Source: Cyanidioschyzon merolae (Eukaryota). Taken from it: a stretch of DNA of 64,000 nt. The position numbers and the translations under genes were made by a program. The stretch's first letter is position 1. Each line of letters begins with the position of its first letter. Below are positions 24,249-58,495 of the stretch, piece after piece. The notes under the pieces were generated by a model. The model did not search any database. It was not told the origin of the DNA and was given only the letters and a program-made list of their open reading frames with translations. The DNA lies in the NCBI GenBank assembly GCA_000091205.1, contig AP006495.2; one strand, written 5' to 3'.

Positions 24249-25286
24249 TTAGCTGGAGACTCTGCCGGATGTCTTGGAGGCACGATCGAGTCGCTCCTGA
24301 ACCTTGAGCTCGATGAGAGGTCCAACGCGGTCCTGTTCCTCACGATCAACAACCGCCACAAGAGAGGACTCTGGCTCTGAGCGTCGACCAATGAGGAATA
24401 GTGGTTCGGTTGGAGCGCATACGTAGTAAACCCGCCCGTCCGTGTTCTGGAATGTCACCAGTACTTCGACTTCTTCTTCCTCCGAAGTGACGAGCTCCAA
24501 CTCATCGTCGATGTCGCTGACCGACTCGGCGTCATCATCAGCGGCTAATTCGTAGTGGTTGACACCAGCGCCGGCGGAACCGAGGTCGTCGAGCGCATCC
24601 CTTAGCAACGTATCGTCGACGCCATTGACGGCACTGGCCGCTGTCGCTGTTTCGTGATCCTTGAGGTCGTTCTCATCGTCTTCTTCTTCCTCATCGTCGT
24701 CGTCATCGTCGTCAAAAAATTGGCTCAAGTCTCCGTCCACGGTAAAAACTACCGCCGTCCGCACGAGGCACAGGTCTTCCTCCGCAAGAGCAAGGAACGC
24801 TTCCTTGAACAAGGACTCAACTTCAACCGGGTCTTCGATTGGTATTAAGGCAGATTCATCCTCACCGTCTTCAAAACGAGCGAATACAACCGGCTGCAGA
24901 CACGGCGACAAGACGAGGTACTCGACGCCTTCAATGGTGACGGCGTCTTCGACGAAACATGGAAGCGCCTCAAGCTTCGGCTCCCTTGGATCAACAACCT
25001 GTACGATTTCGACTCTGTCCTCATCAGGCAAGGACTGCACTTCGGGTCTCTTCTTATCGCTAGATCTGCTTTGTTTTGATTTTCTTGAGTCACTGCACGT
25101 CAAACGAGCCACGCCAGCGATTACGTCGCGCGCAGCGGCTCGCTGGCCTCCGTGACTCCTGTACCAGGCGAGCGCCCCCAGTCGAGCAGCTTCGTCTCGC
25201 CTGCCGTACGCTATCCTGGTCACACCACCAACATTCGATCGATGACGGTAGACCGACGCTCCCAGAAGTGAGCAGAAACCGAGCAT
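24249..25286 (-). CDS. Acidic protein with two DUF1292/DUF3727-like modules and an Arg/Ser-rich, transit-peptide-like N-terminus
   Basis: 345-aa ORF. Two modules 'EGVEYLVLSPC...VVFARFEDGEDESALIPIEDP' and 'DGRVYYVCAPTEPLFLIGRRSEPESSLVAVVDREEQ'. A poly-Asp/Glu tract lies between them. The antisense poly-Ser ORF 24661..25155 is an artefact. Confidence 0.45.
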   Translation of the reverse strand: MLGFCSLLGASVYRHRSNVGGVTRIAYGRRDEAARLGALAWYRSHGGQRAAARDVIAGVARLTCSDSRKSKQSRSSDKKRPEVQSLPDEDRVEIVQVVDPREPKLEALPCFVEDAVTIEGVEYLVLSPCLQPVVFARFEDGEDESALIPIEDPVEVESLFKEAFLALAEEDLCLVRTAVVFTVDGDLSQFFDDDDDDDEEEEDDENDLKDHETATAASAVNGVDDTLLRDALDDLGSAGAGVNHYELAADDDAESVSDIDDELELVTSEEEEVEVLVTFQNTDGRVYYVCAPTEPLFLIGRRSEPESSLVAVVDREEQDRVGPLIELKVQERLDRASKTSGRVSS

Positions 25287-32058: not shown

Positions 32059-33750
32059 ATGACAAACGCAGCGGAAACAGATGCAAGAGACAGAACCCGT
32101 CGAGGCTCGTTTGCTGAGTTTCGCGTTGTGCTTCTCGCCGGGGATGTTGGGTCGCGCATGCGTCTCTTCACGGACGCTGTCCCAAAGTGTTTGCTACCCA
32201 TAGGCAATCGGCCGATGCTCTTCTACGCGCTGTACACGATCGAACGCAACAGCATTCCGGAGGTTACGCTAGTCACCACGGAGCGCGCACTCGAACGCGT
32301 CACGTCCTACGTGGAGGAACTCTACGGGAACGATCCAGCGGTTATGGCGCTTCGGAGCTCAAGGTCATCGCAGCCGGATCTGCATGTTTGCATTGAGGCG
32401 GTGCCGGCTGAACTGGGCAGCGGTGAAGCGCTTCTAAAGGTCACGAAATACCTTGACGCTGAGGACGTGCTCGTTGTCAGTGCCGACACGTTCGGACTCT
32501 GGGATTTAGCATCGCTGGCAACAACGCATCGGGTCACTGGGGCTACCTGGACAATGATGCTAGCCAACGCAAAGTTCGGAGCCAAGAGCGACCACAACAA
32601 GCGTTCTGCCAAGTCGCTGGGGCCTGCCCACGGCTCAAGCACGGCTGCCGATCAGATGGCCATCGGCACGCCTAGTCGAGACTGTATCGTCGTCGACGAA
32701 GTTACGCAGCGAATTCTGTACTTGAAACCGGATGTAGGCGCTTTCGGGAGCGCGGATAACATTCGCCTACCGGGGGATGCGCTGCAAGCGGTCGGCCCGA
32801 TGATGATCCACCGCGATCTGCTGGACCTGCACATCTACTTGTTTCGAAAAACGGCACTAGAGCTGCTTAGCGTGCGACCGCAATTGACAAGTTTGCGCGC
32901 AGACCTGTTACCATATCTGGCCCGCAACCAGTTTGTACTTGAGAGGAGGCTTGCGCGTGCCCTAGGATCCGAGATGACGGGTGGAAGGGAGTCGCCGCTG
33001 CGAACGGCGTGGCAGCGATACCGGAATGCGCCCGCTGGCAGCGCTTCTCGAGTCCGATCGGTATCACCACATCGAAAAAGTGGTGAGAAAGACAATTGCT
33101 GGCTGCCGAGCCTGGAGCCTCTGCCTCTGCACAGTATCATGATTGGTCAGAGCCAAACTGACTCAGTGCGCCACGGACCCGTAAGTATTCGATGCCAGGG
33201 GTGTTTCAGCGCTCCCGAGGCAGGTCGAATTATTCGAGTTAATACAATCAGCGCCTACATAGAGGCTAATCGCCTCGTAGCTGCGGGCGTGGTATACGGC
33301 GACCTCAGAGGCGCTAGCGCCGTCACGCCAAAACGATGGTGCAGCGAGGCGGCAACGCAAGGAGGTACAGTGCAGATCACTGGAAAGAACGAAGAGACAC
33401 AGGCCACGCGCGGGGAACAAGCTTCGGCGCGCGTTCATATCGCAAAGGATTGCTTGATAGCGGCGGAGGGTGTCGAAATATCTCCAGGATCTACGATCAA
33501 AAACCAAACCGTGGTGCATGTACACACGATCGTCGGTAGGCGGTGCAAGCTGAGTGCCTGCATTATTATGGATCATGTTAGGATCGGAAATGAATGCCTG
33601 CTCCAGAACTGCGTCGTCGGGAGTAACGCGCAGATCCACGACCGTTGCCAGCTACGCGACTGTCTCGTTGGACCCGACACGGAAGTGCCCGCTGGTACGA
33701 TCGAAACCGGTGAAGTGTTCACGCGCGCCGATATCCCTTTGGTGGATTGA
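32059..33750 (+). CDS. EIF2B3: Translation initiation factor eIF2B gamma-like (nucleotidyltransferase fold plus left-handed beta-helix hexapeptide repeats)
   Basis: 'VLLAGDVGSRMRLFTDAVPKCLLPIGNRPMLFYALYTIE' matches the eIF2B-gamma N-terminal motif GGSRM..L....PK.LLPVGN.P. C-terminal hexapeptide repeats are present. There is no W2 domain, hence gamma rather than epsilon. Confidence 0.7.
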   Translation: MTNAAETDARDRTRRGSFAEFRVVLLAGDVGSRMRLFTDAVPKCLLPIGNRPMLFYALYTIERNSIPEVTLVTTERALERVTSYVEELYGNDPAVMALRSSRSSQPDLHVCIEAVPAELGSGEALLKVTKYLDAEDVLVVSADTFGLWDLASLATTHRVTGATWTMMLANAKFGAKSDHNKRSAKSLGPAHGSSTAADQMAIGTPSRDCIVVDEVTQRILYLKPDVGAFGSADNIRLPGDALQAVGPMMIHRDLLDLHIYLFRKTALELLSVRPQLTSLRADLLPYLARNQFVLERRLARALGSEMTGGRESPLRTAWQRYRNAPAGSASRVRSVSPHRKSGEKDNCWLPSLEPLPLHSIMIGQSQTDSVRHGPVSIRCQGCFSAPEAGRIIRVNTISAYIEANRLVAAGVVYGDLRGASAVTPKRWCSEAATQGGTVQITGKNEETQATRGEQASARVHIAKDCLIAAEGVEISPGSTIKNQTVVHVHTIVGRRCKLSACIIMDHVRIGNECLLQNCVVGSNAQIHDRCQLRDCLVGPDTEVPAGTIETGEVFTRADIPLVD

Positions 33751-35211: not shown

Positions 35212-36453
35212 CTAGTGGAAACCGAACATGTGCGGAATCGCACTGAGGTACCGGTCGCCGGTGTAACTCAGGCTCGGAGCCAATGGATACCGTCCCAGCG
35301 CGCGCCAACGAGCCACATTGGAAGATAAGGTCGACAGAGGGCTACCTACGAACAGGTGCGCCCCATAGACAGCAAGATACATTTCAGATACCACCGAAAC
35401 GATGTGATTCCGTCCAGGGGCCGGCAACGTCGGCGACAGCACCTGCCAGCTCTCTTGCACCAGCGCGGTTAGATCGTAGACTCGACTGGGAGCAGCACCA
35501 CAATCCCCTTGAGCCTCCACGAAAGTTTTCCACAGCGCCAGCGTCTGCAGTGATGCCCCATGCCCGTCGTGCATGACGTAGAAATGGAGCGGACGCGCGT
35601 CCGGATCGCGCCGCTGGATCGCGCACAACTGGCACAGGGCGCAGCGTGCACTCGAAGACACGCAGGCGCTCTCGTTTCCCGCCAAGACCCATGCGTGCAG
35701 CGCGTTTGCCGGGAAATCATCCGGACGTCGTGCGTGCGCGCGCGGCTCGAAGCCACTGCGACGCAGGTGAACGACAACGACGAGCGGCGGTGAGGCGGGC
35801 GCTCCCTCGAGGGCCCCCCAGTGCTGCATCCATAACTTGGCAACAGGGGTTTCGCGCAACGTAATGCGCTGCCAGAGACGCAAGAATGACGCTTCGCTGC
35901 GCGTAAAACATCGCATTAGGCCGTATAGATGGGCGAGCTGGAGCAGGAGCGGCCCTGCGCGTGCCGAGGCATCTCGCAGGCTGCCGAGTGCATCGCCGCA
36001 GGCCGCGTCGCGATGGAGGCGTAGGCTGATGTTGCGGGCGTCGAAGACTGTGGACATGCTGCCACGGCGCCTGCATCGGGCTGCTGTCGATTCTGGTAGG
36101 ATCCATCTACGCAGCAGAGCGGCATCGATATCGAGAACATCGAACCAGGTGTTCGAAGTGGTAGGGCGGGCGCGTTCTACCAGTGCGGGCACCACAAGAC
36201 GGCGGCCTAGCAGCTGTGCTAGATGAATACCGACGAATAGTGCCATGAGCTGGTTATTCCAAGCACCGTATGACGGATCATAGGATAGGAGGTATGTGCA
36301 ATGACTTGAAACCCGGCTCCTCCAGTGGCAAAGCACGAGGCCGCCTAGCCAAGCGAGCAGTACGATGAGCGCCCTACGGCCGAGGAGCTTTAGCGTACCC
36401 GCTGACCAAGCTCTTTGTTGTTGATGGTTGTACTTCGAGACTGTTCTCGGCAT
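35212..36453 (-). CDS. GDP-fucose protein O-fucosyltransferase-family (plant O-FucT/DUF246-like) type-II membrane glycosyltransferase
   Basis: N-terminal signal anchor. 'SYGAWNNQLMALFVGIHLAQLLGRRLVVPAL' resembles the O-FucT GGLNQ..........LVIPEL block. The C-terminal 'VYGAHLFVGSPLSTLSSNVARWRALG' resembles the family C-terminus. Confidence 0.55.
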   Translation of the reverse strand: MPRTVSKYNHQQQRAWSAGTLKLLGRRALIVLLAWLGGLVLCHWRSRVSSHCTYLLSYDPSYGAWNNQLMALFVGIHLAQLLGRRLVVPALVERARPTTSNTWFDVLDIDAALLRRWILPESTAARCRRRGSMSTVFDARNISLRLHRDAACGDALGSLRDASARAGPLLLQLAHLYGLMRCFTRSEASFLRLWQRITLRETPVAKLWMQHWGALEGAPASPPLVVVVHLRRSGFEPRAHARRPDDFPANALHAWVLAGNESACVSSSARCALCQLCAIQRRDPDARPLHFYVMHDGHGASLQTLALWKTFVEAQGDCGAAPSRVYDLTALVQESWQVLSPTLPAPGRNHIVSVVSEMYLAVYGAHLFVGSPLSTLSSNVARWRALGRYPLAPSLSYTGDRYLSAIPHMFGFH

Positions 36454-37287
36454 TAGCGTATAAAGTTGACAAGAGTGCTACAGAGTTCATGGAGCAACAC
36501 CTGCAAAGGGAGGGAGCTCTCCCGGGGCGAGCTCGCTTCGTCGCCCGGCGCTGGCGTCTACCCTGTCGCCAGCTGTGCGCTGATGGGGCAGGTACCCGCA
36601 CTCCCGTAGCGCTAAGCGCTCGGTGTGGCTTTCTAGCTGCTATAAATATCAGAAATGGGAGCAGCCGCTTTGGTACCCGAGCAAAAACGCTCCGATCCTT
36701 CTGTGCACGTGTTGCAACAGAGCCTGTACTTAGCCGTGCCAGGGGGCGCGCGGGCTGCGCATTGCCCGCTGACCCCCAGAGCGAGTCGCAGCCGCTCCTG
36801 CATGTGCCTACTGGTCGAGTGCCGGTTTCGCTGCAGGAATCCAGAACGGTGTGGTGGTAGTTTTGCGCGTCGCTGGTGACAACTGGGTATCTGGGGACGC
36901 TGTCTCGTGTCAACGGTTTGTGCAACATAAAACATTAGTAGAGCAGGAGCGGTCCCAGGAGCCGTACCGAGTTCCCGCACGACCTGGACCCGAGCCGCAG
37001 TGCGAGCTCTTCAGACCGCTACCCGGAGCCCGGGCTACGGATGCCTCGTGTGCATAGCTTGCAGTTGTGGACGCTGCGTATCGGCTGCACGCTCGAGGCG
37101 GTTACCGAAGCCGCACACCGATCCAACCTTCGTTCGACCGGGTGTACCTCGTGCAGTGGCGCTGCCAGCGGACGAGTTACTCGACAGCGAGGCATCGCCC
37201 GCCGGGAACCGTCCCGTCGGTTGCACGCCTCTTGAGCGCCCAATCGCAGGTGCTGGTGAGGCAGTTATTGTTGTCTAGGCTGGCAAT

Positions 37288-39432
37288 ATGGCTCAAACTG
37301 CAACACTGGTCGAGCGAGACCTGCGTTCTCTGCTATGCTCAACGCGAGCAGGTTGCTGCTTTGCTGCCGCCGTGGCACCGGAGCGCCTCCGGCGCCGAGC
37401 TCTAACAGGCGCAGCCGCGCATCCTCCAAGGCGGAGCGGTTACCATCGTGGGTGTCCTTGTGGGGATGTTCGCATGCCTGGACTCCATGCAGGGAAGCAG
37501 GCATTGCTATGGCGATACCAGAGATCACTGCCTCGACGACAGCAGCAGTATTGGGGTCGGCACGCGTGCCGATCTGGCGTGCTGATGTCCATTAGAAGCG
37601 CACTGAGCGAGCAGCAGGCAGCTGCTTCAACGGATCTCCTGATTCTCAGCAACGGCCCCGGCGAGCTTTATACTTGGGTTCGACCGCTCCTCATGCATCT
37701 CGGCGAGGAGTTTCGCATTTCCATCGCGTTGACGCCTTGTCCACACGCTAGCGGTAGAGAAATGGACGCAGTGCTGCGCTTTCCGCATGTGGCACGGGTT
37801 TTGCCACCAGCCCATTTCTGGCGACTGCTCCTCGGAATCGAGTCGCATGGGTTGTGGGAACCGGGCGACTCAAACGCAGGTTCTTCGTCTGCCGACATGG
37901 AAACGTTCTGGCGTCGACAGGGGGTCGTTCTATTTCTTGGCGGTGACCAGTTTTTTGCAGGCCTTATTGCGAGAAGGCTCGGGTACCCATGCGTAGCCTA
38001 TGCTGAATGGGATGCCATGTGGCCCGGATGGATTTCCTGTTATGCAGTGCGGAGGCAAGCGATCCGCCAACGGGCCCGCAGGCACCTGCTTTATCGGCTT
38101 TTTGTGGCTTGGGCATGGATCCTCGGACTCTGGGGGGTCACTCTCCAGCAGCGACGGCGAGCAGTTCCCAGAATCGTGGTGATCGGCGACCTGACAACGG
38201 ATGCAGTTTGGCAGTACGACAATGTTCGGGAAAAAGCGAAGACGCTACGCGATTTGTACGTTGCGGCCTACGCGGAGACGCATCTGGGCGACTCGACCGC
38301 GCACGAGACGAAGCTTAGCCCCCAAAACCAACATTCCAGTGAGGTGCGCTCGACAGCTGCAGCCCATCAGAATCGAGTGCCTCGTACGTCGGTGTTGCAG
38401 GCCGGCTCCTCGCGGGAAAAGCATATTCTCGTTGGCCTGCTACCGGGATCGAAACCGAGCAAGCTGGCAATCATGGTTCCATTCTTGCTGCTGTGCGCGT
38501 ATCATATACACATGCGCGCAATGCGCTTGGGTGTTGGCCCCGTGGTGTTCGTGCTCCCAGTGGCACCGGGCTTGGATACAGCAACAGTACAGCGCTTTGC
38601 GGATCCCGCTCACAACTCAATGTTTCAGTTCATCCCGGGCGCCTCTGCTCATTCGTCGCTCTGCACCAAATTCACAGCTGCAGACGAGCCAAGCGTAGCC
38701 ACGGAACAAAGTAAGCGACCCGCTCCACATGCGCAAGTCGCACAGGCCATGCCCTCAGCGCTGGACCCAGACGAGCGCAATATGGAGGCCGGCCCTGGCC
38801 CGCTGGCCCCGTGCCTGCTTATTGATCGCGTGCACGCCCCAGCAGCGGGTGCAAGCGGCGTAGGACGTCTCGAAGCTAGCGCTGTTCAAGTGCCGATTTT
38901 TTTACACGAAGAATCCCCCGCGTATGCGTTGCTTGCTGCTACAGACATATGCCTGACAACCGTTGGTGCAAATACGGCGGAACTGGCCTCGCTTTGGACG
39001 CCCGCCCTGGTACTCGTTCCCACGCATCGATTGGATGTAATGCGCGCATGGGACGGAATCTTGGGTATTCTGTGTCGTTTGCCTCTGATCGGTACGATCA
39101 TTACGATCCTGACAAACCGCATCATATTGTGGATGTATGCGACTCGCCGCTGGGGCTACTTTGCGCTCCCTAATCGCTGGGCAGGGAACCGCGAACTACT
39201 TCCAGAGCTGGTTGGTAATTTGGATGCTCAGCAAGTTGCGGCCCGGGCGCTCGGCCTGGCACTCGATCAGGATAGGTTGCAGCTCATTCGACATGCGTTA
39301 CGGAACCATGCGCAGCCAAGTGGTGCAGTGCGTCGCCTTGCGGTGCTTGTGCGGCATGCACAACGCACTGCAGCAGTAGCTGCACCGAGAGAGGCAGTTG
39401 CTGATGCACACGACTCGTTGCGTACCGCATGA
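37288..39432 (+). CDS. LPXB: Lipid-A-disaccharide synthase-like protein (LpxB, GT19) with an inserted segment. The conserved domain starts at Met100 (37585); the upstream 99 codons may be a targeting peptide.
   Basis: Collinear LpxB blocks: 'ILSNGPGELYTWVRPLL' (AGExSGD-like), 'VLFLGGDQFFAGLIARRLGYPCVAYAEWDAMWPGW' (LpxB VFVGIDAPDF...YVSPSVWAWR), 'VGLLPGSKPSKL' (LLPGSR), 'ALLAATDICLTTVGANTAELASLWTPALVLV' and 'ALPNRWAGNRELLPELVGN' (SLPNLLAGRELVKEL). Confidence 0.6.
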   Translation: MAQTATLVERDLRSLLCSTRAGCCFAAAVAPERLRRRALTGAAAHPPRRSGYHRGCPCGDVRMPGLHAGKQALLWRYQRSLPRRQQQYWGRHACRSGVLMSIRSALSEQQAAASTDLLILSNGPGELYTWVRPLLMHLGEEFRISIALTPCPHASGREMDAVLRFPHVARVLPPAHFWRLLLGIESHGLWEPGDSNAGSSSADMETFWRRQGVVLFLGGDQFFAGLIARRLGYPCVAYAEWDAMWPGWISCYAVRRQAIRQRARRHLLYRLFVAWAWILGLWGVTLQQRRRAVPRIVVIGDLTTDAVWQYDNVREKAKTLRDLYVAAYAETHLGDSTAHETKLSPQNQHSSEVRSTAAAHQNRVPRTSVLQAGSSREKHILVGLLPGSKPSKLAIMVPFLLLCAYHIHMRAMRLGVGPVVFVLPVAPGLDTATVQRFADPAHNSMFQFIPGASAHSSLCTKFTAADEPSVATEQSKRPAPHAQVAQAMPSALDPDERNMEAGPGPLAPCLLIDRVHAPAAGASGVGRLEASAVQVPIFLHEESPAYALLAATDICLTTVGANTAELASLWTPALVLVPTHRLDVMRAWDGILGILCRLPLIGTIITILTNRIILWMYATRRWGYFALPNRWAGNRELLPELVGNLDAQQVAARALGLALDQDRLQLIRHALRNHAQPSGAVRRLAVLVRHAQRTAAVAAPREAVADAHDSLRTA

Positions 39433-40933
39433 TCCAGGGAAGCACTGCAACAACTGCAGCGTGAGAAGGGAAAGCCGCGGATCTACGCAACAACCAACGC
39501 ACTGCATCCTACCAAAGTTCACCATGACGGCTTCTTCGTTGACAGAACACCACCTTCGACGCTCCCGCGCCGGCCGCAGAGGCTCGAAAACAACGCGCTC
39601 CTGACGTATCCATGCCCAGGGCCGACGTTCCCGCGCAACGCACGCATATCGCCAGTGCGTGTCACTGCGCCTCGTAGATGCGTGTCGGATCGGTGCTGGC
39701 TGCTGCGTACCCGCAGTGAGGCACCGCCTGGCTGACGTGATCATCCGTGGACGGTTTAAGGCCAGGTACCGGCTACGAAGCCGTCGTCGCGACTCTTCTG
39801 GTGCGGCACGACGGTTCTGGTGTACCGATAAACTTCCTGTGTGCTGTCCGGGAACCAGTGATACGTGTGTGGATCGAAAAGTGTCCCAGGTATGAAAATT
39901 ATATTTTCTTTTCTGTTGACGGGCGACGACAATTGCTAAGAACTGTGTTTATACGAAATTCTGTGGATCGAAATGTAGCGGAACACTGGTGCACGTCGTG
40001 CGGCAGCCGGAGGTGCCGCCTACGTGTCCAAGCTTGGGTCAGTTTTTTTACTTGACAAACGTATCGTCGTGTCGAGAAAAGAAACCTGGTTCCAATGCGT
40101 TCGATTGAGGTACTAGTCAATCACACAGTACCCAGATCTGACGAAAGTTTTCTTTTCAGCTTCAAAGCGACAGCTCCAAGCTCTCTTCACACTAGCTCGC
40201 ACTAGCCGCAGTGGCCACTCGCGCAACTTGACGCGCCTTCCGACCGCTTGAGGTCACTCAGCGTGCGAAACCGCGGGTTCGCTCGCGTCCCTGGAGACGG
40301 CGTTTTCTCCTTGCCGGTTTTCGTAGCCGCGCTCGATGATGCGCTTGGGCGTGACTGCTTCTGCGCGGACCACGTCGGCTGCACCAGCGACAGAAAGAAC
40401 GCTACTAGGAGTCCGTACAGCCACTGGAAGAGCTTGCCAGTGGCGTGCAGCGGGTTCGCCACTAACGAGCGCCAGCCGCGCACAACCTGTCCGTCTTTGC
40501 GTACGTACATAAGCGTTTAGAAACTAGATGCCGTTGTGTCCAAGTGAGTACAAGTCCCGTATACGCTGCGTCTTGCGCTACGTGAGCTAAACGAAACGTT
40601 GCGGAAGAACGTCGCCAACGAACAATCGCGCAGTAAGGGTGCGCTCCGGATTGCACCCGAAAAATGCCCAACGGCAGCGGCCTCGAGCGGAGCACCGATC
40701 GCCATGCAGCAGCCTGCGGACGTTTGCCAGCGCGATGCGTGCGCGGTGGCGGCGCTGCAGCCGCCATCATCGGTCGCATACCTGGGACACGTTTCTCGCT
40801 AGAAATGGATCCTGTCGAAATAGAAACGCGCGCTACGATCGTGGCGTTTACCGTCCGTGCAGGCAGAGCGCGGAAGTAGCCGGTGCGTGTGGTTGTGTGT
40901 GTCCGAGTCGAAAGGCGCACGCTGCCGCGATAA

Positions 40934-42064
40934 ATGTCCTCGCAGAGCACGGCGCTTTCGAACGGTGCCAAGTCGGTAACCAGTGGGCAGCCCGACGGGA
41001 ACTCGGACGCGCGGGTCGTCTACGGCGACCGTCTGCGCTTCGTGCCGCGGAATATCCTTGTGACTGGCGGTGCCGGCTTTATTGCCTCGCACGTAGTCGA
41101 ACGGCTCGTGAGTCGATATCCCCACTACCGCGTGACGGTACTGGACAAGCTCGACTACTGCTCGTCGCTGAGCAACCTCGCGCAGGTGGCAAACCGACCA
41201 AACTTCAAGTTTATTCGCGGCGATATCCGCTCGCATGACCTGGTGCTTTACGTGCTCCAGGAGGAGTGCATCGATACAGTGCTCCACTTTGCGGCGTGCA
41301 CGCATGTCGACAACTCGTTCACGTCCTCGATCCTGTTTACGGAGAACAACGTGCTGGGAACGCACGTCCTCCTGGAGTGCGCACGCCAGTACGGCAAAGT
41401 GCGGCGCTTCATTCACGTCAGCACCGATGAAGTGTACGGCGGCGAGAGCAACATGGAGACAGAGTCATCGATCCTGGCACCCACGAACCCGTACGCATGT
41501 AGCAAGGCCGCCGCCGAATTCATTTGCCGCGGCTACGTCAAGTCGTTCGGATTGCCGGTGATCATCACACGCGGCAACAACGTGTACGGGCCGCACCAGT
41601 TCCCCGACAAGCTCATTCCCAAGAGTATCTGTCTGCTGGCGCAACGCCGGCCCTGCTTTGTACACGGCTCTGGTGAGCATGCACGCAACTTTTTGTACGT
41701 CGAGGACGCTGCGAGCGCCTTTGACACCATCCTGCATTGTGGCGAGACCGATGAGGTCTACAACGTAGGCTCTGAGATCGAGAAACGCAACATTGACGTT
41801 GTGCACGACATTATCGATCTCTTCGGCCTGTCTGCCGAGGCGAACCGCCACATCGAGTTTGTCAAAGATCGCACCCTCAACGATATGCGCTACAGGATCG
41901 ACTCGTCGAAGCTGCATGCGCTGGGCTGGAGGCCGCAGGTGTCCTGGGAAGAGGGCCTGCGCCGAACCAAGACCTGGTACTGTGATCCGAATAACCTGAA
42001 GCGCTGGCCGAATTATCTCAGTGGCCTCGTACCGCATCCGAGTCTCACCGAGGAGAAGCACTAG
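40934..42064 (+). CDS. UGD: UDP-glucose 4,6-dehydratase (RHM/UGD-type NDP-sugar dehydratase of the UDP-rhamnose pathway)
   Basis: Near-collinear with the plant RHM N-domain: 'NILVTGGAGFIASHVVERLVSRYPHYRVTVLDKLDYCSSLSNL', 'NFKFIRGDI', 'IDTVLHFAACTHVDNSF', 'RRFIHVSTDEVYG' and 'YACSKAAAE' (the YxxxK). Confidence 0.85.
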   Translation: MSSQSTALSNGAKSVTSGQPDGNSDARVVYGDRLRFVPRNILVTGGAGFIASHVVERLVSRYPHYRVTVLDKLDYCSSLSNLAQVANRPNFKFIRGDIRSHDLVLYVLQEECIDTVLHFAACTHVDNSFTSSILFTENNVLGTHVLLECARQYGKVRRFIHVSTDEVYGGESNMETESSILAPTNPYACSKAAAEFICRGYVKSFGLPVIITRGNNVYGPHQFPDKLIPKSICLLAQRRPCFVHGSGEHARNFLYVEDAASAFDTILHCGETDEVYNVGSEIEKRNIDVVHDIIDLFGLSAEANRHIEFVKDRTLNDMRYRIDSSKLHALGWRPQVSWEEGLRRTKTWYCDPNNLKRWPNYLSGLVPHPSLTEEKH

Positions 42065-42561: not shown

Positions 42562-43206
42562 ATGCAACGCGGTTTGCAGAGGTATGCTTTCGTCGAGTTT
42601 GCGTCTGGAGGCGCGTTGTTACGGGTGCGGCGGGTGAAGCATTCGGCGTCAAGAACTAGCCGCACACCGGCACGCTGTGCTGTGTCAGAGCCGTCACCAG
42701 CGTCACCGTCCAGTGGCGACCAGCCGACCCAGACAGTGCGTGTACGACCTGGTGAGCGGTCGCTGCGGCTGAATGCGCTACAGCGCTGGTTGCTCGGCCG
42801 ACTGAGGCGAAGCCTCGAGCGTCTCTCCCCCGGCAACGTGCCCAACCTGCTTAGGAGCGCCGTCGCGCGGGCGCGTGGTGCCCCCGCGGACCCACCGCCC
42901 TTGGACGATGACTACCTCGACAGTGTGCTGCTCCCAGAGTCAGATGAGCGGCCCTTTATATCGCCGGCACTCCGACGCGTCCTGCGCGACGCGCCTGTGC
43001 AGCCTGCCAAGGGCGTTTACACAAGCGACCCGTCGCGGACGTTCTGGGAGCAACTGATCCTCTGGGCAGGCGTGGTGCTCGTCGCTCTCGCCGTCCTGCG
43101 CGTCCTTTGGCTCTTTATCAGTGCTATCCTGGGAATTTCGCTGAGTCTCATCGTCATCGCCGTCGTCACCGTGTTCGTTTTCGTGGCGTTCACAGTACTC
43201 GGCTAG
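42562..43206 (+). CDS. Hypothetical small protein with a C-terminal double transmembrane / tail-anchor segment
   Basis: 214-aa ORF. The C-terminus 'LILWAGVVLVALAVLRVLWLFISAILGISLSLIVIAVVTVFVFVAFTVLG' is strongly hydrophobic. No known motif. Confidence 0.3.
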   Translation: MQRGLQRYAFVEFASGGALLRVRRVKHSASRTSRTPARCAVSEPSPASPSSGDQPTQTVRVRPGERSLRLNALQRWLLGRLRRSLERLSPGNVPNLLRSAVARARGAPADPPPLDDDYLDSVLLPESDERPFISPALRRVLRDAPVQPAKGVYTSDPSRTFWEQLILWAGVVLVALAVLRVLWLFISAILGISLSLIVIAVVTVFVFVAFTVLG

Positions 43207-44079: not shown

Positions 44080-45558
44080 GTGTCCGTAACATCTGCGCTG
44101 CGCTGCGTTACACGACATATCCGCCACACCGTTCCCACATCGTCGTCGCCGTCGACGTCGTCGTCGTCCTCGTACGTTCGCGTGTGTTTATCCCACCTGG
44201 TTCGTGAACGAGCAATGTGGGCGTTTCTTGCGAGTCTTCCATTGCGCAGTCGCAGTGACTTTGTGTCCCGCTCGGTGCGGTTGGGGACGCCTCGTTCACT
44301 CCTCTCTGCTCGGACGACGCGACCCCTGAGCGCAAGCCCCGCAGCGTCGCTGGTAGCAGCAGAGGAGCGCGCAGCGGCTCCTGGCAACGATGCAATTAAG
44401 GTCATAACAGATGCCAGTACTTCTTCGGACACGAAGACCCGCGCGCCGAGTCGCTTCGAGCGAATGAGAGCCAAGTACGGTCTCAGTGACGTTTCTGAGC
44501 CCGAGGCAGCCCCGGCCTACAAGGAGCTCGACCAGGCTGTGCAAAATCTGAGCTACAAATATGAGCTGAACATGATAGTGAAAGGACGAGTGGTGCACTT
44601 TGAGCCGCGCGGCGCCCTGATCGACGTCGGCGCTAAAACTGCGGCGTATCTGCCGCTGAGCGAAGTGGCCATGGACCGAGTCAGCTCTCCCGAGGAGGTG
44701 CTGAAGATTGGCGAGGAGCGCGACTTTCAGATAATCGCCACGGAGGACACCGAGGGTCAGTTGCGAGTATCCATCAAACGGATTGAGTTTACGCGCACCT
44801 GGGAGAAGCTGCAGCAGGCGCTCGCCAACGACGAAGTTGTCCAGTGCGAGGTTGTTGCGGTGAACCGCGGCGGTGCCAGCGTCCGTATCGACTGTCTGCG
44901 CGGCTTTCTGCCGGCATCGCATATCGTGCTGGTACCAGGGTTCATTCCGGGCCTGCCGTCAGACCCGCGTTTGGAGGATCTCATGGGTAAGGAGCTGCCC
45001 GTTAAGCTGTTGGAAGTGGATCCCGAGAAGAGCCGTTTGGTCGTCTCACACCGGAGGGCGCTCGCTGAGAAAAGCCTCAAGAATGTCGAAACCGGGACCA
45101 TACTCGAGGGCACCGTACGCGGAATCAAGCCCTATGGTGTCTTTATCGAGTCGGGCGGTGTGTCGGGCTTGTTGCATATTAGCCAAATCTCCCACGAGCA
45201 CGTCGAAGATCTGACTAGTGTGTTTACGCTCGGCGACAAAGTGAAAGCGCTTGTAGTCTCGCAAGATCGCGAGAAAGGGCGTGTTTCGCTATCGACAAAA
45301 GTTCTGGAGCCAGAGCCTGGCGATATGCTGCGCTCGCCCCAAACAGTCTTCGAGCGTGCAGAGGAGATGGCGGCACGGTATCGCGAGCGGATCGCCGAGG
45401 AAGAACGCGCCCGAGCGGAGTATGCAAGCGATATTGTCGCAGGACTAGACGTTGCTTCTTTGGGCGTTGATGCGGAGGTGAATGGCGACGCAGGAGCGGG
45501 AGCGCAACGAGAGCATCCACGTCCAGATCAGGAAGAATCCTCTCCGGCATCTTCCTAA
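44080..45558 (+). CDS. PRPS1: Plastid-type ribosomal protein S1 (three S1 domains) with a Ser/Arg-rich, transit-peptide-like N-terminal extension
   Basis: The ~130-aa N-terminus is hydroxylated and basic ('SSSPSTSSSSS...RSRSDFVSRSVRLGTPRSLLSARTTRPLSASPAASL'). Three S1 folds follow (e.g. 'GTILEGTVRGIKPYGVFIESGGVSGLLHISQISHEHVED...GDKVKALVVSQDREKGRVSLS'). Confidence 0.75.
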   Translation: MSVTSALRCVTRHIRHTVPTSSSPSTSSSSSYVRVCLSHLVRERAMWAFLASLPLRSRSDFVSRSVRLGTPRSLLSARTTRPLSASPAASLVAAEERAAAPGNDAIKVITDASTSSDTKTRAPSRFERMRAKYGLSDVSEPEAAPAYKELDQAVQNLSYKYELNMIVKGRVVHFEPRGALIDVGAKTAAYLPLSEVAMDRVSSPEEVLKIGEERDFQIIATEDTEGQLRVSIKRIEFTRTWEKLQQALANDEVVQCEVVAVNRGGASVRIDCLRGFLPASHIVLVPGFIPGLPSDPRLEDLMGKELPVKLLEVDPEKSRLVVSHRRALAEKSLKNVETGTILEGTVRGIKPYGVFIESGGVSGLLHISQISHEHVEDLTSVFTLGDKVKALVVSQDREKGRVSLSTKVLEPEPGDMLRSPQTVFERAEEMAARYRERIAEEERARAEYASDIVAGLDVASLGVDAEVNGDAGAGAQREHPRPDQEESSPASS

Positions 45559-54586: not shown

Positions 54587-54676
54587 ATGCGGTGTTGTGA
54601 GCTGGGACCGAATACCGGGGCTGATCAACCAGAGCGCACCGAGCCTCCGTCCGAGACCAGCGAAAGTGATGAGGTC

Positions 54677-54708
<32 letters not shown>

Positions 54709-57700
54709 TGGGGATCTCGCCGACCGTCTAACGCGCAGCGTAGACGAACAGAGTCGATCCGCCGGGTGCGCGGCTAGCGGCGCCCAGGACAAGCCGCAGA
54801 CATTGTGCTCGGTGCAAGACGTCACCGCGTCCACTGCACAACGTTTTGACGTGCGCCAAAGCAAGGAGTGCGGCGAAGCTGTCCAGAACTTCAGCGAGCT
54901 TGGCGTGGGGAAGCAGCAAGAGCACGCTGATCCACGAACGGTCTGGCTTCCAGGGTCACCTGAGCCGACCGCGTTTCCCCAAGTCCGACTGGTTGGCAAC
55001 TGGGACCTACCGATGGTGCCCATGAACGAAGAACCCAGCGAATACACATCCTCTGTCAGGGAAGGCGCTGTGCCTGACCTGTGTGAAGAGGGTTCGGTTA
55101 CACGTGCGTCCAGAATAGGAGCTTGCGTGGTGCAAGCCGCGAGCCATTCCCGAGAAGCAGTCGCAGGCGACGCGCAGTCTACCGATGACCAGGAGAGCGA
55201 GATGCACACCGCAAGCGCGTCGACGACGACTGCTAGCTCGTTGAAGCAGTGCACAGCAGACGGGAAAAGCGGCGAATCCACCCAGAGGCTGCATACAGAC
55301 TCGAGAGCGTCCTCTGGCATCGCGTTTGTGCCCTACAAAAGTGAAGAAGAGGTACTGGCGGATTTAGAACTCGAGGATTCGATGGACGATCATACCTACA
55401 CACTGCTTGATCTTAGAAAATCCTTGCCAGAGCAGATGCAGCGCCGGTCCTACGCTTGCCCAACGGTGCGAGACGGCAGCAGGTCAGATCGTCACCTGGA
55501 TAGGCGGGCATTCCGTGGCGAAAACGAAGAAGAACACGACGACGATAGCTCCAGCGGACCAGATCGGGATGTCTGGACGCCACCGGCTACGCCTTTGGAT
55601 AGCGAGATGCCGCTCATCGTGTGTCCACCGGAGCCCGTCTGGCCATGCGAGGAAGATCTGCGGGATCTCACACCCGCTGAACTTGCACGCTCTACGGATG
55701 TATTCATGCAGGTTGCGGAGGAGCTGCATTTCCACTGGCGTGTGCTCAAGCTCGGTACCGATCCGGTAACGCCAACCCCTCTGCTTGAGCGTCTTAAGTT
55801 TCTCTGTATCGTATCGAGCAACCTCGATGAGTACTTTTCCAAAAACATGTACGATGTGTCAAAAACAATGCGCCCACTCTACGAACGGATTTCAGCTGCG
55901 ATACGCGACATCACTGCTCAGCAGGAGTCCTGTTTCACGGACGTTATTCTACCAGCGCTCGCTCGATATGATATGCGCATTCTACGTTACGCAGATCTCA
56001 GTATGACGCAGCGAGCGCAGATGAACGCGTTCTTCCATGCTCGTCTGTTTCCACTGCTTACCCCGCTGACCCTGGATCCGACGCATCCGTTTCCGCTTCT
56101 GCGCAGTCACTCGCTGTACCTGGCGGTGCTGCTGAAAGGCGCTCAGCTGATGCCGCCTTCGGAACACGACGCCCACGACGGCGACGAAAGTCCGATTCCG
56201 GCGCTGAGTCCACCGAACGCCTCCCTGGACCGCTCGATAGCCACTGCGCTGCCCTCTGATACCCACGTCGCCTGGGTCCGAGTCCCGTCGTCGTGTAGTC
56301 GCTTCATTACCGTGGACAATGAGAAGCGTTTTTTGCCGGTCGAGGAGATTATCATCCAGAACTTGGATGCGCTTTTCGAAAACGTGCGCGTCATTGCAGC
56401 GTACCCGTTCCGCGTGACCCGTAATACCAAACTTGAACTGGACAAGATCGAACTCAACGAAAGTGAGGATTTTTTGAAAATTGTCGAAGAGAACCTATAT
56501 AGTCGACAGCGACGAGCCGCAGTGCGGCTGGAGGTTTCGCGCGATATGCCCGACGTGCTGACAACGCTGTTGCGCGAGCAACTGAACCTGGAACCCTTGG
56601 CTATGTATCGCTCAAGGGCTCCGATTATTGGCCTCAACGACTGTTTCATGCTGACGAACGTCAACATCCCTGCTTTGCGATACCCCCCGTGGCGTTTCAA
56701 GACGCACTCTATTCTGGCCGGCTACAAATACGGCGTCCAGAGCGGGCACACGGCCCATATGTTTGAGCTCATTCGACACAACGACGTGCTGTTCTCGTTT
56801 CCGATTCATTCTTTTGATGAGACCACTCTGCGTTTCCTCGAAAGCGCAGTTCGGGACCCCGCAGTGCGCCTGATGAAAATGGTGCTGTATCGATGTGGGA
56901 ACAATTCACCTGTCGTGAAGCTGCTCATGGAGGCGGCTCGGCGTGGCATTGATGTCAATGTGCTGGTTGAACTCAAAGCTTCCTTTGATGAGGATCAGAA
57001 TGTCCTCTACGCTCGCATGCTCCAAGAGGCGGGCTGTAACGTCGCGTACGGGGTCAAGGGCTACAAGACCCACGCGAAACTTATTCTCGTGGTTCGCGAG
57101 GAGAATCATGCCCTGGTCTCGTATTGTAACGTCGCCACTGGCAACTACAATGCAACGACGGCGAAAATCTATACGGATTTTTCGCTGTTCACCAGTCGGG
57201 AGGATATCTGCGCCGATGTCACCGATTTGTTCAATGTGTTTACGGGGTATAGTGCGAAGCGATCGTTTCGCAAACTCCTCGTTTCACCGGTGAACATGCG
57301 CGATCGTTTCCTCGAACTCATTCAGCGCGAGATAGATAACGCTCGTGCGGGCTACCCGGCGAGAATCATCTGCCAGTGCAACGGTATCACTGAGGTGCTT
57401 ATCACCCAGCGACTCTACGAGGCGAGCATGGCCGGCGTTCGTGTCGACCTCATCGTACGCGGTATCTGCCGTGTTCGACCCGGCATCACCGGCATCAGCG
57501 AGAATATTCGCGTGGTGAGCATCCTCGGGCGTTTTTTGCTTCACGCTCGAGTGTTTTATTTTGCGAACGCCCGTGAGGCTAAACCCGAGTACTATATCGG
57601 GTCTGCGGACTGGCGTACACGAAATTTGCTCGCTCGTCTGGAGGCTGTCGCCCCGGTTGAAGACAAGTACCTGCAGCAGACACTCTGGCGACACCTGAAT

Positions 57701-58495
57701 CGGCTGTTGAGTGATTCTGTGAACGGTTGGGAGATGCTCCCCGACGGTCGCTACGTGAAAGGCGAAAGCGAAGCGCTCGGGCATCTCCGAGATGCGATCA
57801 TGGCTGCGCGTCGGGAGGCCGAAGCCGAGGCCCTCAAACCGCCAGCACAAGCACCGGTGTCGGCGGACGAGGTGACACCGGGCTCGTCGGAGGCCGAACA
57901 CTTGCCCGTCGTGCGTAAAGCTGGTTGTGTTCCGGTTCGGTTGAACCGGCGACACAACACGCGTCGAGACGATATTGGCACGCGGTACGAGGTGCTTCTG
58001 ATCACCTCTACCTCGTCGTCGTTTATTGCGCGGCATCCGAATGATTCGCGCGTCTCGGAAATACCGGACGGTGGCATCACGTGGGTCTTCCCCAAAGGCA
58101 GCATGGCGTACGGTGAAGATGGCCGCAGTGCTGCGCTGCGCGAGGCCCTCGAGGAGGCCGGAGTCAGCGGCGAACTCGGGCCGCTCCTCAGTGTCAGCAC
58201 GAAACGCAAACGGAGAACGGTGGTCATGACCGAGTTTTATTTGCTGCATGTGAAACAGCAGCTGTCCCAATGGGGCGAAAGCAGCCAGCGACACCGGCGC
58301 TGGTTTACACTAGACGAGGCAGCGAATGTGATCACCAAAGAGTATCTCTTGGAAGCGCTGATGAAGGCTCGTCAAGCGCTCGGCGAAACGCCTACCAGCC
58401 AACCGACATCGCCACCAGCACCACCAGCACCACCACCAGCAGCAGCAGCAGCAGCAGCATTCGAATCGACTACCAATGGCGGAAAAAAGCACTGA
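54587..58495 (+). CDS. PPK1: Polyphosphate kinase 1 (PPK1, full N/H/C1/C2 architecture) fused to a C-terminal DIPP-type Nudix hydrolase domain, preceded by a ~360-aa low-complexity N-terminal extension
   Basis: PPK1 blocks: 'LLERLKFLCIVSSNLDEYF', 'FRVTRNTKLELDKIELNESEDFLKIVEENLYSRQRRAAVRLEV', HKD-1 'YKTHAKLILVVREENHALVSYCNVATGNYN' and HKD-2 'RFLLHARVFYFANAREAKPEYYIGSADWRTRNL'. The Nudix region 'RHPNDSRVSEIPDGGITWVFPKGSMAYGEDGRSAALREALEEAGVSGELGPL...RHRRWFTLDEAANVI' parallels human DIPP 'RHPDRWIVPGGG...REVCEEAGVKGTLGRL...RKREWFKIEDAIKVL'. It is one continuous ORF of 1302 aa. Confidence 0.9.

Follow-up and report, generated by a model that had tools for sequence, protein, structure and literature searches.

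The 64,000-nt stretch of Cyanidioschyzon merolae contig AP006495.2 analysed here (GenBank assembly GCA_000091205.1; hereafter the window) carries a gene related to bacterial LpxB, the lipid-A-disaccharide synthase, between two further carbohydrate-active genes. Three consecutive long open reading frames (ORFs) span 6.85 kb (35212-42064), with no other ORF of similar size there: a fucosyltransferase-like (FucT-like) gene on the minus strand (35212-36453, 413 aa), the LpxB-like gene on the plus strand (37288-39432, 714 aa) and a dehydratase gene, also on the plus strand (40934-42064, 376 aa). The coordinates and the consecutive order are exactly those given in the initial annotation of this DNA. 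ORFs in the window are long and uninterrupted, the spacers between them are wide and the G+C content is ~57%.

The 714-aa product of the LpxB-like gene is BAM80916.1 (XP_005536952.1; UniProt M1UT57), annotated as 'hypothetical protein, conserved'. The initial annotation had called it an LpxB-like enzyme of glycosyltransferase family 19 (GT19) and had held that failure to score as such in profile searches would count against the call. The protein itself has no match in Pfam (E ≤ 10), NCBIfam (E ≤ 0.01) or the PDB sequences, so that in formal terms the call failed at this level, and hhalign against the single E. coli LpxB sequence aligns just 56 C-terminal columns with 26% probability. Its kinship with LpxB is visible solely via its cyanobacterial homologues. 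The closest relatives are the proteins of Cyanidiococcus (58% identity) and Cyanidium caldarium (42%), then metagenomic relatives, and next come hundreds of proteins of ~420 aa (E ~1e-70) that are ~43% identical over the alignable core and of which all organism-named ones are cyanobacterial. A scan with the peptide TTVGANTAEL as pattern, in which each bacterial and archaeal species was represented by a single genome, confirmed at least 592 relatives; among the best 80 of these, all taxon-named ones are cyanobacteria, ranging from Nostocales to Prochlorococcus and Thermostichales. The family is present even in a streamlined 1.6-Mb Prochlorococcus genome, and this breadth suggests a core role for it in cyanobacteria. 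Eukaryotic members were seen in this analysis in cyanidiophyte-type red algae alone.

A profile built from the family retrieves E. coli LpxB as its sole match among all PDB sequences (E = 8e-7), E. coli LpxB matches several family members in tblastn (best E = 5e-6), and a MAFFT alignment of the family with E. coli LpxB is collinear along the whole enzyme. The protein adopts a GT-B fold with two Rossmann-like domains, and its AlphaFold model (pLDDT 77.8, pTM 0.75, 352 residues at or above 90) has a good core. The distance from canonical LpxB is nonetheless apparent in the profile scores. Cyanobacterial members reach 15-25 bits against TIGR00215, the LpxB equivalog (cutoff 190), 16-30 bits against TIGR03492 (cutoff 219) and 21-26 bits against Pfam LpxB (PF02684; cutoff 22.6), for which E. 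coli LpxB scores 531; the Cyanidium orthologue, tested against the LpxB/GT19 profiles PF02684 and TIGR00215, scores 15.3 bits. Canonical cyanobacterial lpxB lies inside a conserved lpxD-lpxC-fabZ-lpxA-lpxB cluster (PMC3087551), and tblastn searches with E. coli LpxA and FabZ found no match in 82 cyanobacterial loci of the LpxB-like gene, taken with ~8 kb on each side. Because of the low profile scores and the lack of lpxA/fabZ neighbours, the clade is, as judged from sequence, a separate, non-clustered GT19-like paralogue of lipid A disaccharide synthase and not the orthologue of E. coli or plant LpxB. What stands of the original LpxB-like call is therefore the superfamily, a GT19-like GT-B fold, and what falls is membership of LpxB proper.

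Cyanobacterial homologues such as WP_105219571.1 and WP_099703805.1 are named 'lipid-A-disaccharide synthase' in databases, a name that is probably over-specific, resting as it does on Pfam scores at or around the threshold. The literature searched holds no paper on the LpxB-like clade; one 'GT19 (lpxB)' gene, which may or may not be of this clade, is listed in a transcriptome paper on Porphyridium but not analysed there. As such, M1UT57 is a member of a well-conserved clade that is unstudied as far as could be found.

Residue conservation over 67 family sequences, from Prochlorococcus-type to red-algal members, maps the LpxB active site onto the window protein, whose numbering is used here; the roles of the LpxB residues, including D98 as the proposed catalytic base, are those of PMC5785501. 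The FLGGDQFF motif (37933-37956, plus strand) contains D220, the counterpart of E. coli LpxB D98, in 67 of 67 sequences. The LLPGSK motif (38437-38466, plus strand) aligns with the L197-P198-G199-S200-R201 UDP-pyrophosphate loop in both HMMER and MAFFT, against 5w8s and E. coli LpxB, such that L385-P386-G387-S388 correspond to L197-P198-G199-S200 in all 67, while R201 is conservatively replaced by K389, a lysine in every one of the 67. In LpxB, R201A abolishes activity (PMC5785501). The TTVGANTAEL motif (38956-38985, plus strand) supplies E565, equivalent to the ribose-binding E281, and the LPNRWAG motif (39166-39186, plus strand) supplies P628-N629, equivalent to P315-N316 with the structural Asn N316; both are kept in 67/67. 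Other LpxB positions differ: T277 is not retained and reads A561, and E15 and S17 align with N122 and P124 in an invariant SNGPGE motif (AGETSGD in LpxB), in a loop where the alignment is uncertain. That the presumed catalytic Asp, the UDP-binding loop and the Glu for ribose binding never vary in these sequences argues, at the sequence level, for a working active site.

The internal insertion that had been noticed relative to the E. coli enzyme proves to be several, one of them shared by the whole family and four peculiar to the algae. The family-specific insert, aa 578-602 with the pattern PTxxLDxMRAWDG...LP (39019-39093, plus strand), falls in a gap of E. coli LpxB in the MAFFT alignment; its residues M585, W588 and G590 are invariant, and it merges into the segment where the protein is most hydrophobic (aa 589-610, Kyte-Doolittle mean 2.09), which makes it a candidate membrane or acceptor-binding element. 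The cyanidiophyte-specific inserts, all on the plus strand, comprise aa 191-207, defined by alignment; aa 266-290 (38083-38157), a hydrophobic segment found in the C. merolae, Cyanidiococcus and Cyanidium-type sequences alone and modelled as helices 267-281 and 286-292 with pLDDT 86-93; aa 307-379 (38206-38424), a gap in cyanobacteria, part helical and part disordered, with pLDDT <50 at aa 355-373; and aa 456-532 (38653-38883), largely disordered, with pLDDT <50 at aa 468-492.

An N-terminal extension of about 100 aa had likewise been recognised, and 115 residues do precede the conserved core (aa 1-115; 37288-37632, plus strand). This segment is missing from the cyanobacterial homologues, is basic (19 R/K versus 5 D/E) and is modelled with pLDDT <50 over aa 1-67. 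Alternative in-frame starts exist at Met62 (37471) and Met101 (37588), and the products proposed by gene callers are accordingly 714, 652 and 615 aa long. Cyanidium and Cyanidiococcus may have extensions of a similar kind, likewise unconserved. By its composition and position the extension is a candidate organelle transit peptide.

Taken together, these features make it somewhat better than an even bet that the LpxB-like gene encodes an endosymbiont-derived, probably plastid-targeted, UDP-sugar-dependent inverting glycosyltransferase. Most likely the gene entered the nucleus of the alga through endosymbiotic gene transfer, its source being the cyanobacterium that gave rise to the chloroplast, and its product would then have acquired the basic N-terminal targeting extension and would act in the plastid. 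The UDP-sugar would be held in the C-terminal domain by the PGSK loop and Glu565, with Asp220 acting as the general base for transfer of the sugar, with inversion, onto a membrane-embedded acceptor that the conserved hydrophobic insert (aa 578-610) may reach.

The retained catalytic and UDP-binding residues of LpxB would also suit a relic plastid pathway of the lipid A type, in which the enzyme acts on acylated glucosamine lipids of the cyanidiophyte plastid envelope, either as an alternative disaccharide synthase or as a GT-B-type UDP-2,3-diacylglucosamine hydrolase. That LpxB alone is retrieved by sequence from the PDB, that the family occurs in at least 592 cyanobacterial species and that the GT-B UDP-sugar hydrolases PseG and NeuC are among the structural neighbours of the protein are all consistent with such a pathway. 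Cyanobacteria have lpxA, lpxC, lpxD and lpxB alone, without LpxH, and their lipopolysaccharide (LPS) carries no phosphate (PMC3087551); a hydrolase of this kind would fill the step that lacks LpxH and would explain a phosphate-free lipid A. We nevertheless consider a relic pathway unlikely. The 82 cyanobacterial loci have no lpxA/fabZ neighbour, the N-terminal E15 and S17 of LpxB are lost, and lipid A from red algae is not reported in the literature searched. Cyanidiophyte plastid genomes reportedly carry lpxA/lpxC-like genes, but this finds no support in red-algal plastid genome papers and is kept as an unverified lead. A broader version, which gives the clade a hitherto unrecognised core function in making glycolipids of the cyanobacterial envelope or thylakoids, for example as a substitute for the LpxH step, strikes us as rather improbable.

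The cyanobacterial loci themselves show two recurrent neighbours. chlH, encoding the Mg-chelatase H subunit (~1328 aa), lies upstream of the LpxB-like gene in 32 of the 82 loci (among them L007, L023, L039, L064, L069 and L083), always divergently and at a distance of 0.2-6.6 kb. These loci belong to Nostocales, Oscillatoriales, Coleofasciculaceae, Elainellaceae and Aliterella; none of the picocyanobacterial and Thermostichales loci inspected shows the arrangement, which amounts to a hint only, the sampled species being phylogenetically clustered. Convergent and directly downstream in 29 of the 82 loci, again as a hint only, is a gene for a conserved membrane protein of ~128 aa with hydrophobic segments and no Pfam family (for example 9388-9774 in L064 and 9403-9786 in L007, both on the minus strand). 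The chlH neighbour would fit a non-catalytic role, in which the LpxB-like protein, as a subunit, serves the structure or assembly of a membrane complex, by analogy with the LpxB-annotated subunit of Tetrahymena mitochondrial complex I. The Asp, the UDP loop and the ribose-binding Glu are, on the other hand, invariant in 67 sequences, and a purely structural function is in our view very unlikely.

We return to the proposed glycosyltransferase and its neighbours. The FucT-like gene had been described as an O-fucosyltransferase-family type-II enzyme, a description that holds for the fold and the membrane topology and, as to family, at the superfamily level. The protein has the fucosyltransferase-type GT-B fold, and its sole hydrophobic segment, aa 23-44 (36322-36387, minus strand; Kyte-Doolittle 19-aa mean 1.88), is a signal anchor preceded by basic residues, as in type-II membrane proteins, with an equivalent hydrophobic stretch in the orthologues P0125 and P0126. 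Against the O-FucT profile PF10250 (cutoff 31.5 bits) it scores 11.3 bits (E = 0.26) and two orthologues score 15.6 and 15.7 bits, in each case over the N-terminal motif region alone. Its relatives are confined to cyanidiophyte-type algae, with 4 matches in a word-indexed search of 5.8 billion proteins and 5 clear matches, all from such algae, in an exhaustive search of 1.84 billion representatives with a family profile that omits the N-terminal 88 residues and is thereby less sensitive to O-FucT. Three motifs are invariant or nearly so in six orthologues, all on the minus strand: the C-terminal FVGSPLSTLSSNVARWR (35302-35352), HLRRSGFE (35746-35772) and YDPSYGAWNNQ (36250-36282); read by eye and unscored, they may resemble O-FucT peptide motifs. 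The FucT-like protein is therefore best described as a lineage-specific outlier of the fucosyltransferase-fold (GT65/GT68-like) superfamily. It would be a cyanidiophyte-specific type-II membrane glycosyltransferase of the fucosyltransferase (GT65/68/23/37) fold, presumably of the endoplasmic reticulum or Golgi.

The dehydratase is the most conventional of the three. Over its whole length it matches PF16363 (GDP_Man_Dehyd, E = 1e-68) and PF01370 (Epimerase, E = 2.6e-58), it scores 346 bits (E = 1.8e-103) against the bacterial dTDP-type model TIGR01181, slightly below the cutoff of 365, and its closest solved chain is full-length 6vlo_A (E = 1.6e-87 among PDB sequences), which we take to be a mimivirus enzyme. 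Its 376-aa product matches the annotated 'dTDP-glucose 4,6-dehydratase' of C. merolae 10D at 100% identity, and orthologues with 55-82% identity, often named UDP-glucose 4,6-dehydratase, occur across red algae and many other eukaryotes. A single short-chain dehydrogenase/reductase (SDR) domain occupies aa 40-354, the ORF ends at 376 aa, and there is no C-terminal epimerase/reductase (NRS/ER) domain. The earlier assignment as an RHM-type UDP-glucose 4,6-dehydratase is thus right as to the dehydratase family and goes too far as to RHM, whose second half is missing. The gene encodes an ordinary eukaryotic UDP/dTDP-glucose 4,6-dehydratase of the extended SDR type, which would act in the cytosol as a UDP-glucose 4,6-dehydratase and open the path to UDP-rhamnose.

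Comparison of the locus with those of Cyanidiococcus (L001) and Cyanidium caldarium (L002) and with a cyanidiophyte contig (L089) bears on the proposal that the three genes form a glycolipid or lipid-A-like biosynthetic module. The triplet is not conserved. No dehydratase lies near the LpxB-like gene in any of the three, the adjacency being confined to C. merolae, and in Cyanidium the locus tags of the LpxB-like gene (CDCA07G2250) and the dehydratase (CDCA14G3750) come from different contigs. What persists is the head-to-head FucT-like/LpxB-like arrangement around a divergent intergenic region (36454-37287, strand-neutral, in C. merolae), found also in L001, L002 and L089 and possibly a shared promoter, and this pair is kept together with a gene that stands outside any sugar pathway. 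The eIF2B gamma-like gene (32059-33750, plus strand, 563 aa) adjoins the FucT-like gene in the window and likewise in L001 (5993-7699), L002 (6945-8654) and L089 (3-2003), forming a conserved three-gene synteny block. Its NTP-transferase and hexapeptide domains would also fit a sugar-nucleotide pyrophosphorylase, an assignment that would have made the block a conserved three-gene glyco-cluster; it was rejected, the best PDB sequence matches being eIF2B gamma (5b04_E, E = 7e-29; 6caj_J, E = 7e-25). The block of eIF2B gamma-like, FucT-like and LpxB-like genes has survived the rearrangement of everything around it. With an unrelated translation factor inside the conserved block, simple retention of gene order accounts for the adjacency no less well than functional coupling, and the FucT-like/LpxB-like pairing looks like retained order rather than a module.

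The copy of the block in L089 lies on a Logan contig (SRR31152685, 5870 bp) with 71% G+C and encodes strongly diverged proteins (31-38% identity). Its LpxB-like protein is short, at 472 aa, and lacks the large inserts. The contig suggests an unsampled high-GC cyanidiophyte-like lineage.

Nor is the grouping of the three genes clearly beyond chance. If 3-5% of ~4,800 genes are carbohydrate-active, 0.1-0.6 triplets of consecutive carbohydrate-active genes are expected per genome, a rough and unmeasured estimate. The two transferases differ in origin, the FucT-like protein being a cyanidiophyte orphan and the LpxB-like protein cyanobacterial, and in their N-termini, a signal anchor in the one and a basic extension in the other. 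The three products are predicted to act in different compartments, namely the secretory pathway, probably the plastid, and the cytosol.

We therefore favour, with a probability of about 0.6, a joint reading in which the three genes, set in the compact and mostly intron-free nuclear genome of C. merolae 10D, are neighbours independent of one another, do not form a biosynthetic module and have the individual roles proposed above; that they are uncoupled we infer from the comparisons just described. Several points weigh against it. The head-to-head pair is kept in four cyanidiophyte lineages whose proteins are merely 31-42% identical, with a spacer as short as 135 bp in Cyanidium (L002), and such retention could reflect co-regulation from a shared promoter. 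The N-terminal extension, which would direct the protein to the plastid, is unconserved in sequence and its true start codon is uncertain. The coexistence of the LpxB-like gene with a canonical lpxB in the same cyanobacterial genomes, for its part, rests on the literature and on the missing lpxA/fabZ neighbours.

The kept arrangement and its short spacer are also what would be expected of a functional pair or module, in which a bidirectional promoter drives the FucT-like and LpxB-like genes, both products work on one glycoconjugate and the dehydratase gives the deoxy-sugar donor; nucleotide sugars or glycosyl transfer are indeed common to all three products. Such coupling appears distinctly unlikely to us, given that the dehydratase adjacency is restricted to C. 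merolae, that eIF2B gamma belongs to the same conserved block and that the transferases differ in evolutionary origin and N-terminus. Moreover, by established biochemistry, enzymes of the fucosyltransferase fold use GDP-fucose, a donor that a UDP-glucose 4,6-dehydratase does not make.

The rest of the window is in keeping with independent neighbours, and the gene neighbourhood itself is ordinary. Its other large ORFs are housekeeping genes, encoding EF1-gamma, CK2-beta, NUDIX, YjeF_N, HlyIII, RING and tRNA-guanine transglycosylase proteins, as well as an S1-domain protein, a CCCH zinc-finger protein, a PPK1-NUDIX fusion and an RSN1_7TM channel; several of these unrelated genes share their order with Cyanidiococcus. 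Scans of the window for tRNAs and with Rfam found no RNA gene or family. The PPK1-NUDIX fusion (54587-58495, plus strand) is a 1302-aa ORF with the four domains of bacterial polyphosphate kinase 1 (PP_kinase N, middle, C1 and C2), a NUDIX domain at the C-terminus and an N-terminal extension of ~370 aa, a combination unusual in a eukaryote. Between the dehydratase and S1 genes lies an ORF of 214 aa (42562-43206, plus strand) whose last 55 residues are extremely hydrophobic (Kyte-Doolittle 2.96); it has a weak match to DUF6594 and none by tblastn to the Cyanidiococcus locus, and it may be a small membrane protein or no gene at all. The ORF at 24249-25286 (minus strand) encodes a DUF3727 protein and that at 44080-45558 (plus strand) a protein with three S1 domains; both products may be plastid-related, which is our own reading and not the result of a tool.

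The single interesting element of the locus is thus the divergent GT19-like clade of cyanobacterial origin, and it would be more so if a link to lipid A were shown. Should the clade act as a substitute for the LpxH step, releasing or transferring 2,3-diacylglucosamine without its phosphate, the absence of phosphate from cyanobacterial lipid A would be explained, and its retention in Cyanidiophyceae would point to a lipid-A-like relic, or to some other unknown glycolipid, in the red-algal plastid. Speculative as this is, a second GT19-like enzyme offers a concrete candidate for the UDP-diacylglucosamine hydrolase step of cyanobacteria. Genetic work is feasible in C. merolae as well as in model cyanobacteria.

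Comparison with known systems places each product. The dehydratase resembles the UDP-glucose 4,6-dehydratases (RHM N-terminal domain or UGD type) over its full length, as seen from 6VLO and from the names of its red-algal orthologues; plant RHM is trifunctional and has an epimerase/reductase half, whereas the C. merolae enzyme has none and so is not trifunctional. In relation to POFUT1/POFUT2 and the GT23/GT37/NodZ superfamily, the FucT-like protein stands apart by its Pfam score under the gathering threshold and by relatives limited to cyanidiophyte-type algae. For the LpxB-like protein there is no sequence-level match to MGD1, the GT28 monogalactosyldiacylglycerol synthase, or to MurG, and the family signature motifs are those of LpxB and not of GT28. 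TIGR03492, the 'lipid-A-disaccharide synthase-related protein' family, shows weak similarity, but the scores lie far under its 219-bit cutoff and the clade is therefore a third one rather than a member of that family.

With LpxB itself (GT19; PF02684, TIGR00215; structures 5W8S and 5W8X) the family shares the GT-B fold, a collinear core and the equivalents of D98, LPGS, E281 and PN316. It differs in an additional conserved insert of 25 aa, to which the alga adds four more inserts and the 115-aa N-terminal extension, and in lying outside the lpx gene cluster. The nuclear LpxB of plants (Arabidopsis) offers a parallel: it too is encoded in the nucleus of a eukaryote, is related to an enzyme of the bacterial envelope and carries an extension for targeting to an organelle, a role for which the N-terminal segment is the candidate in C. 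merolae. The Arabidopsis lipid A precursor enzymes are reportedly mitochondrial (Li et al. 2011). The 120 best homologues of the LpxB-like protein include no plant protein. Plant lpx genes are thought to derive from bacteria other than cyanobacteria (PMC3087551); unlike plant LpxB, the C. merolae gene has organism-named non-algal relatives that are all cyanobacterial.

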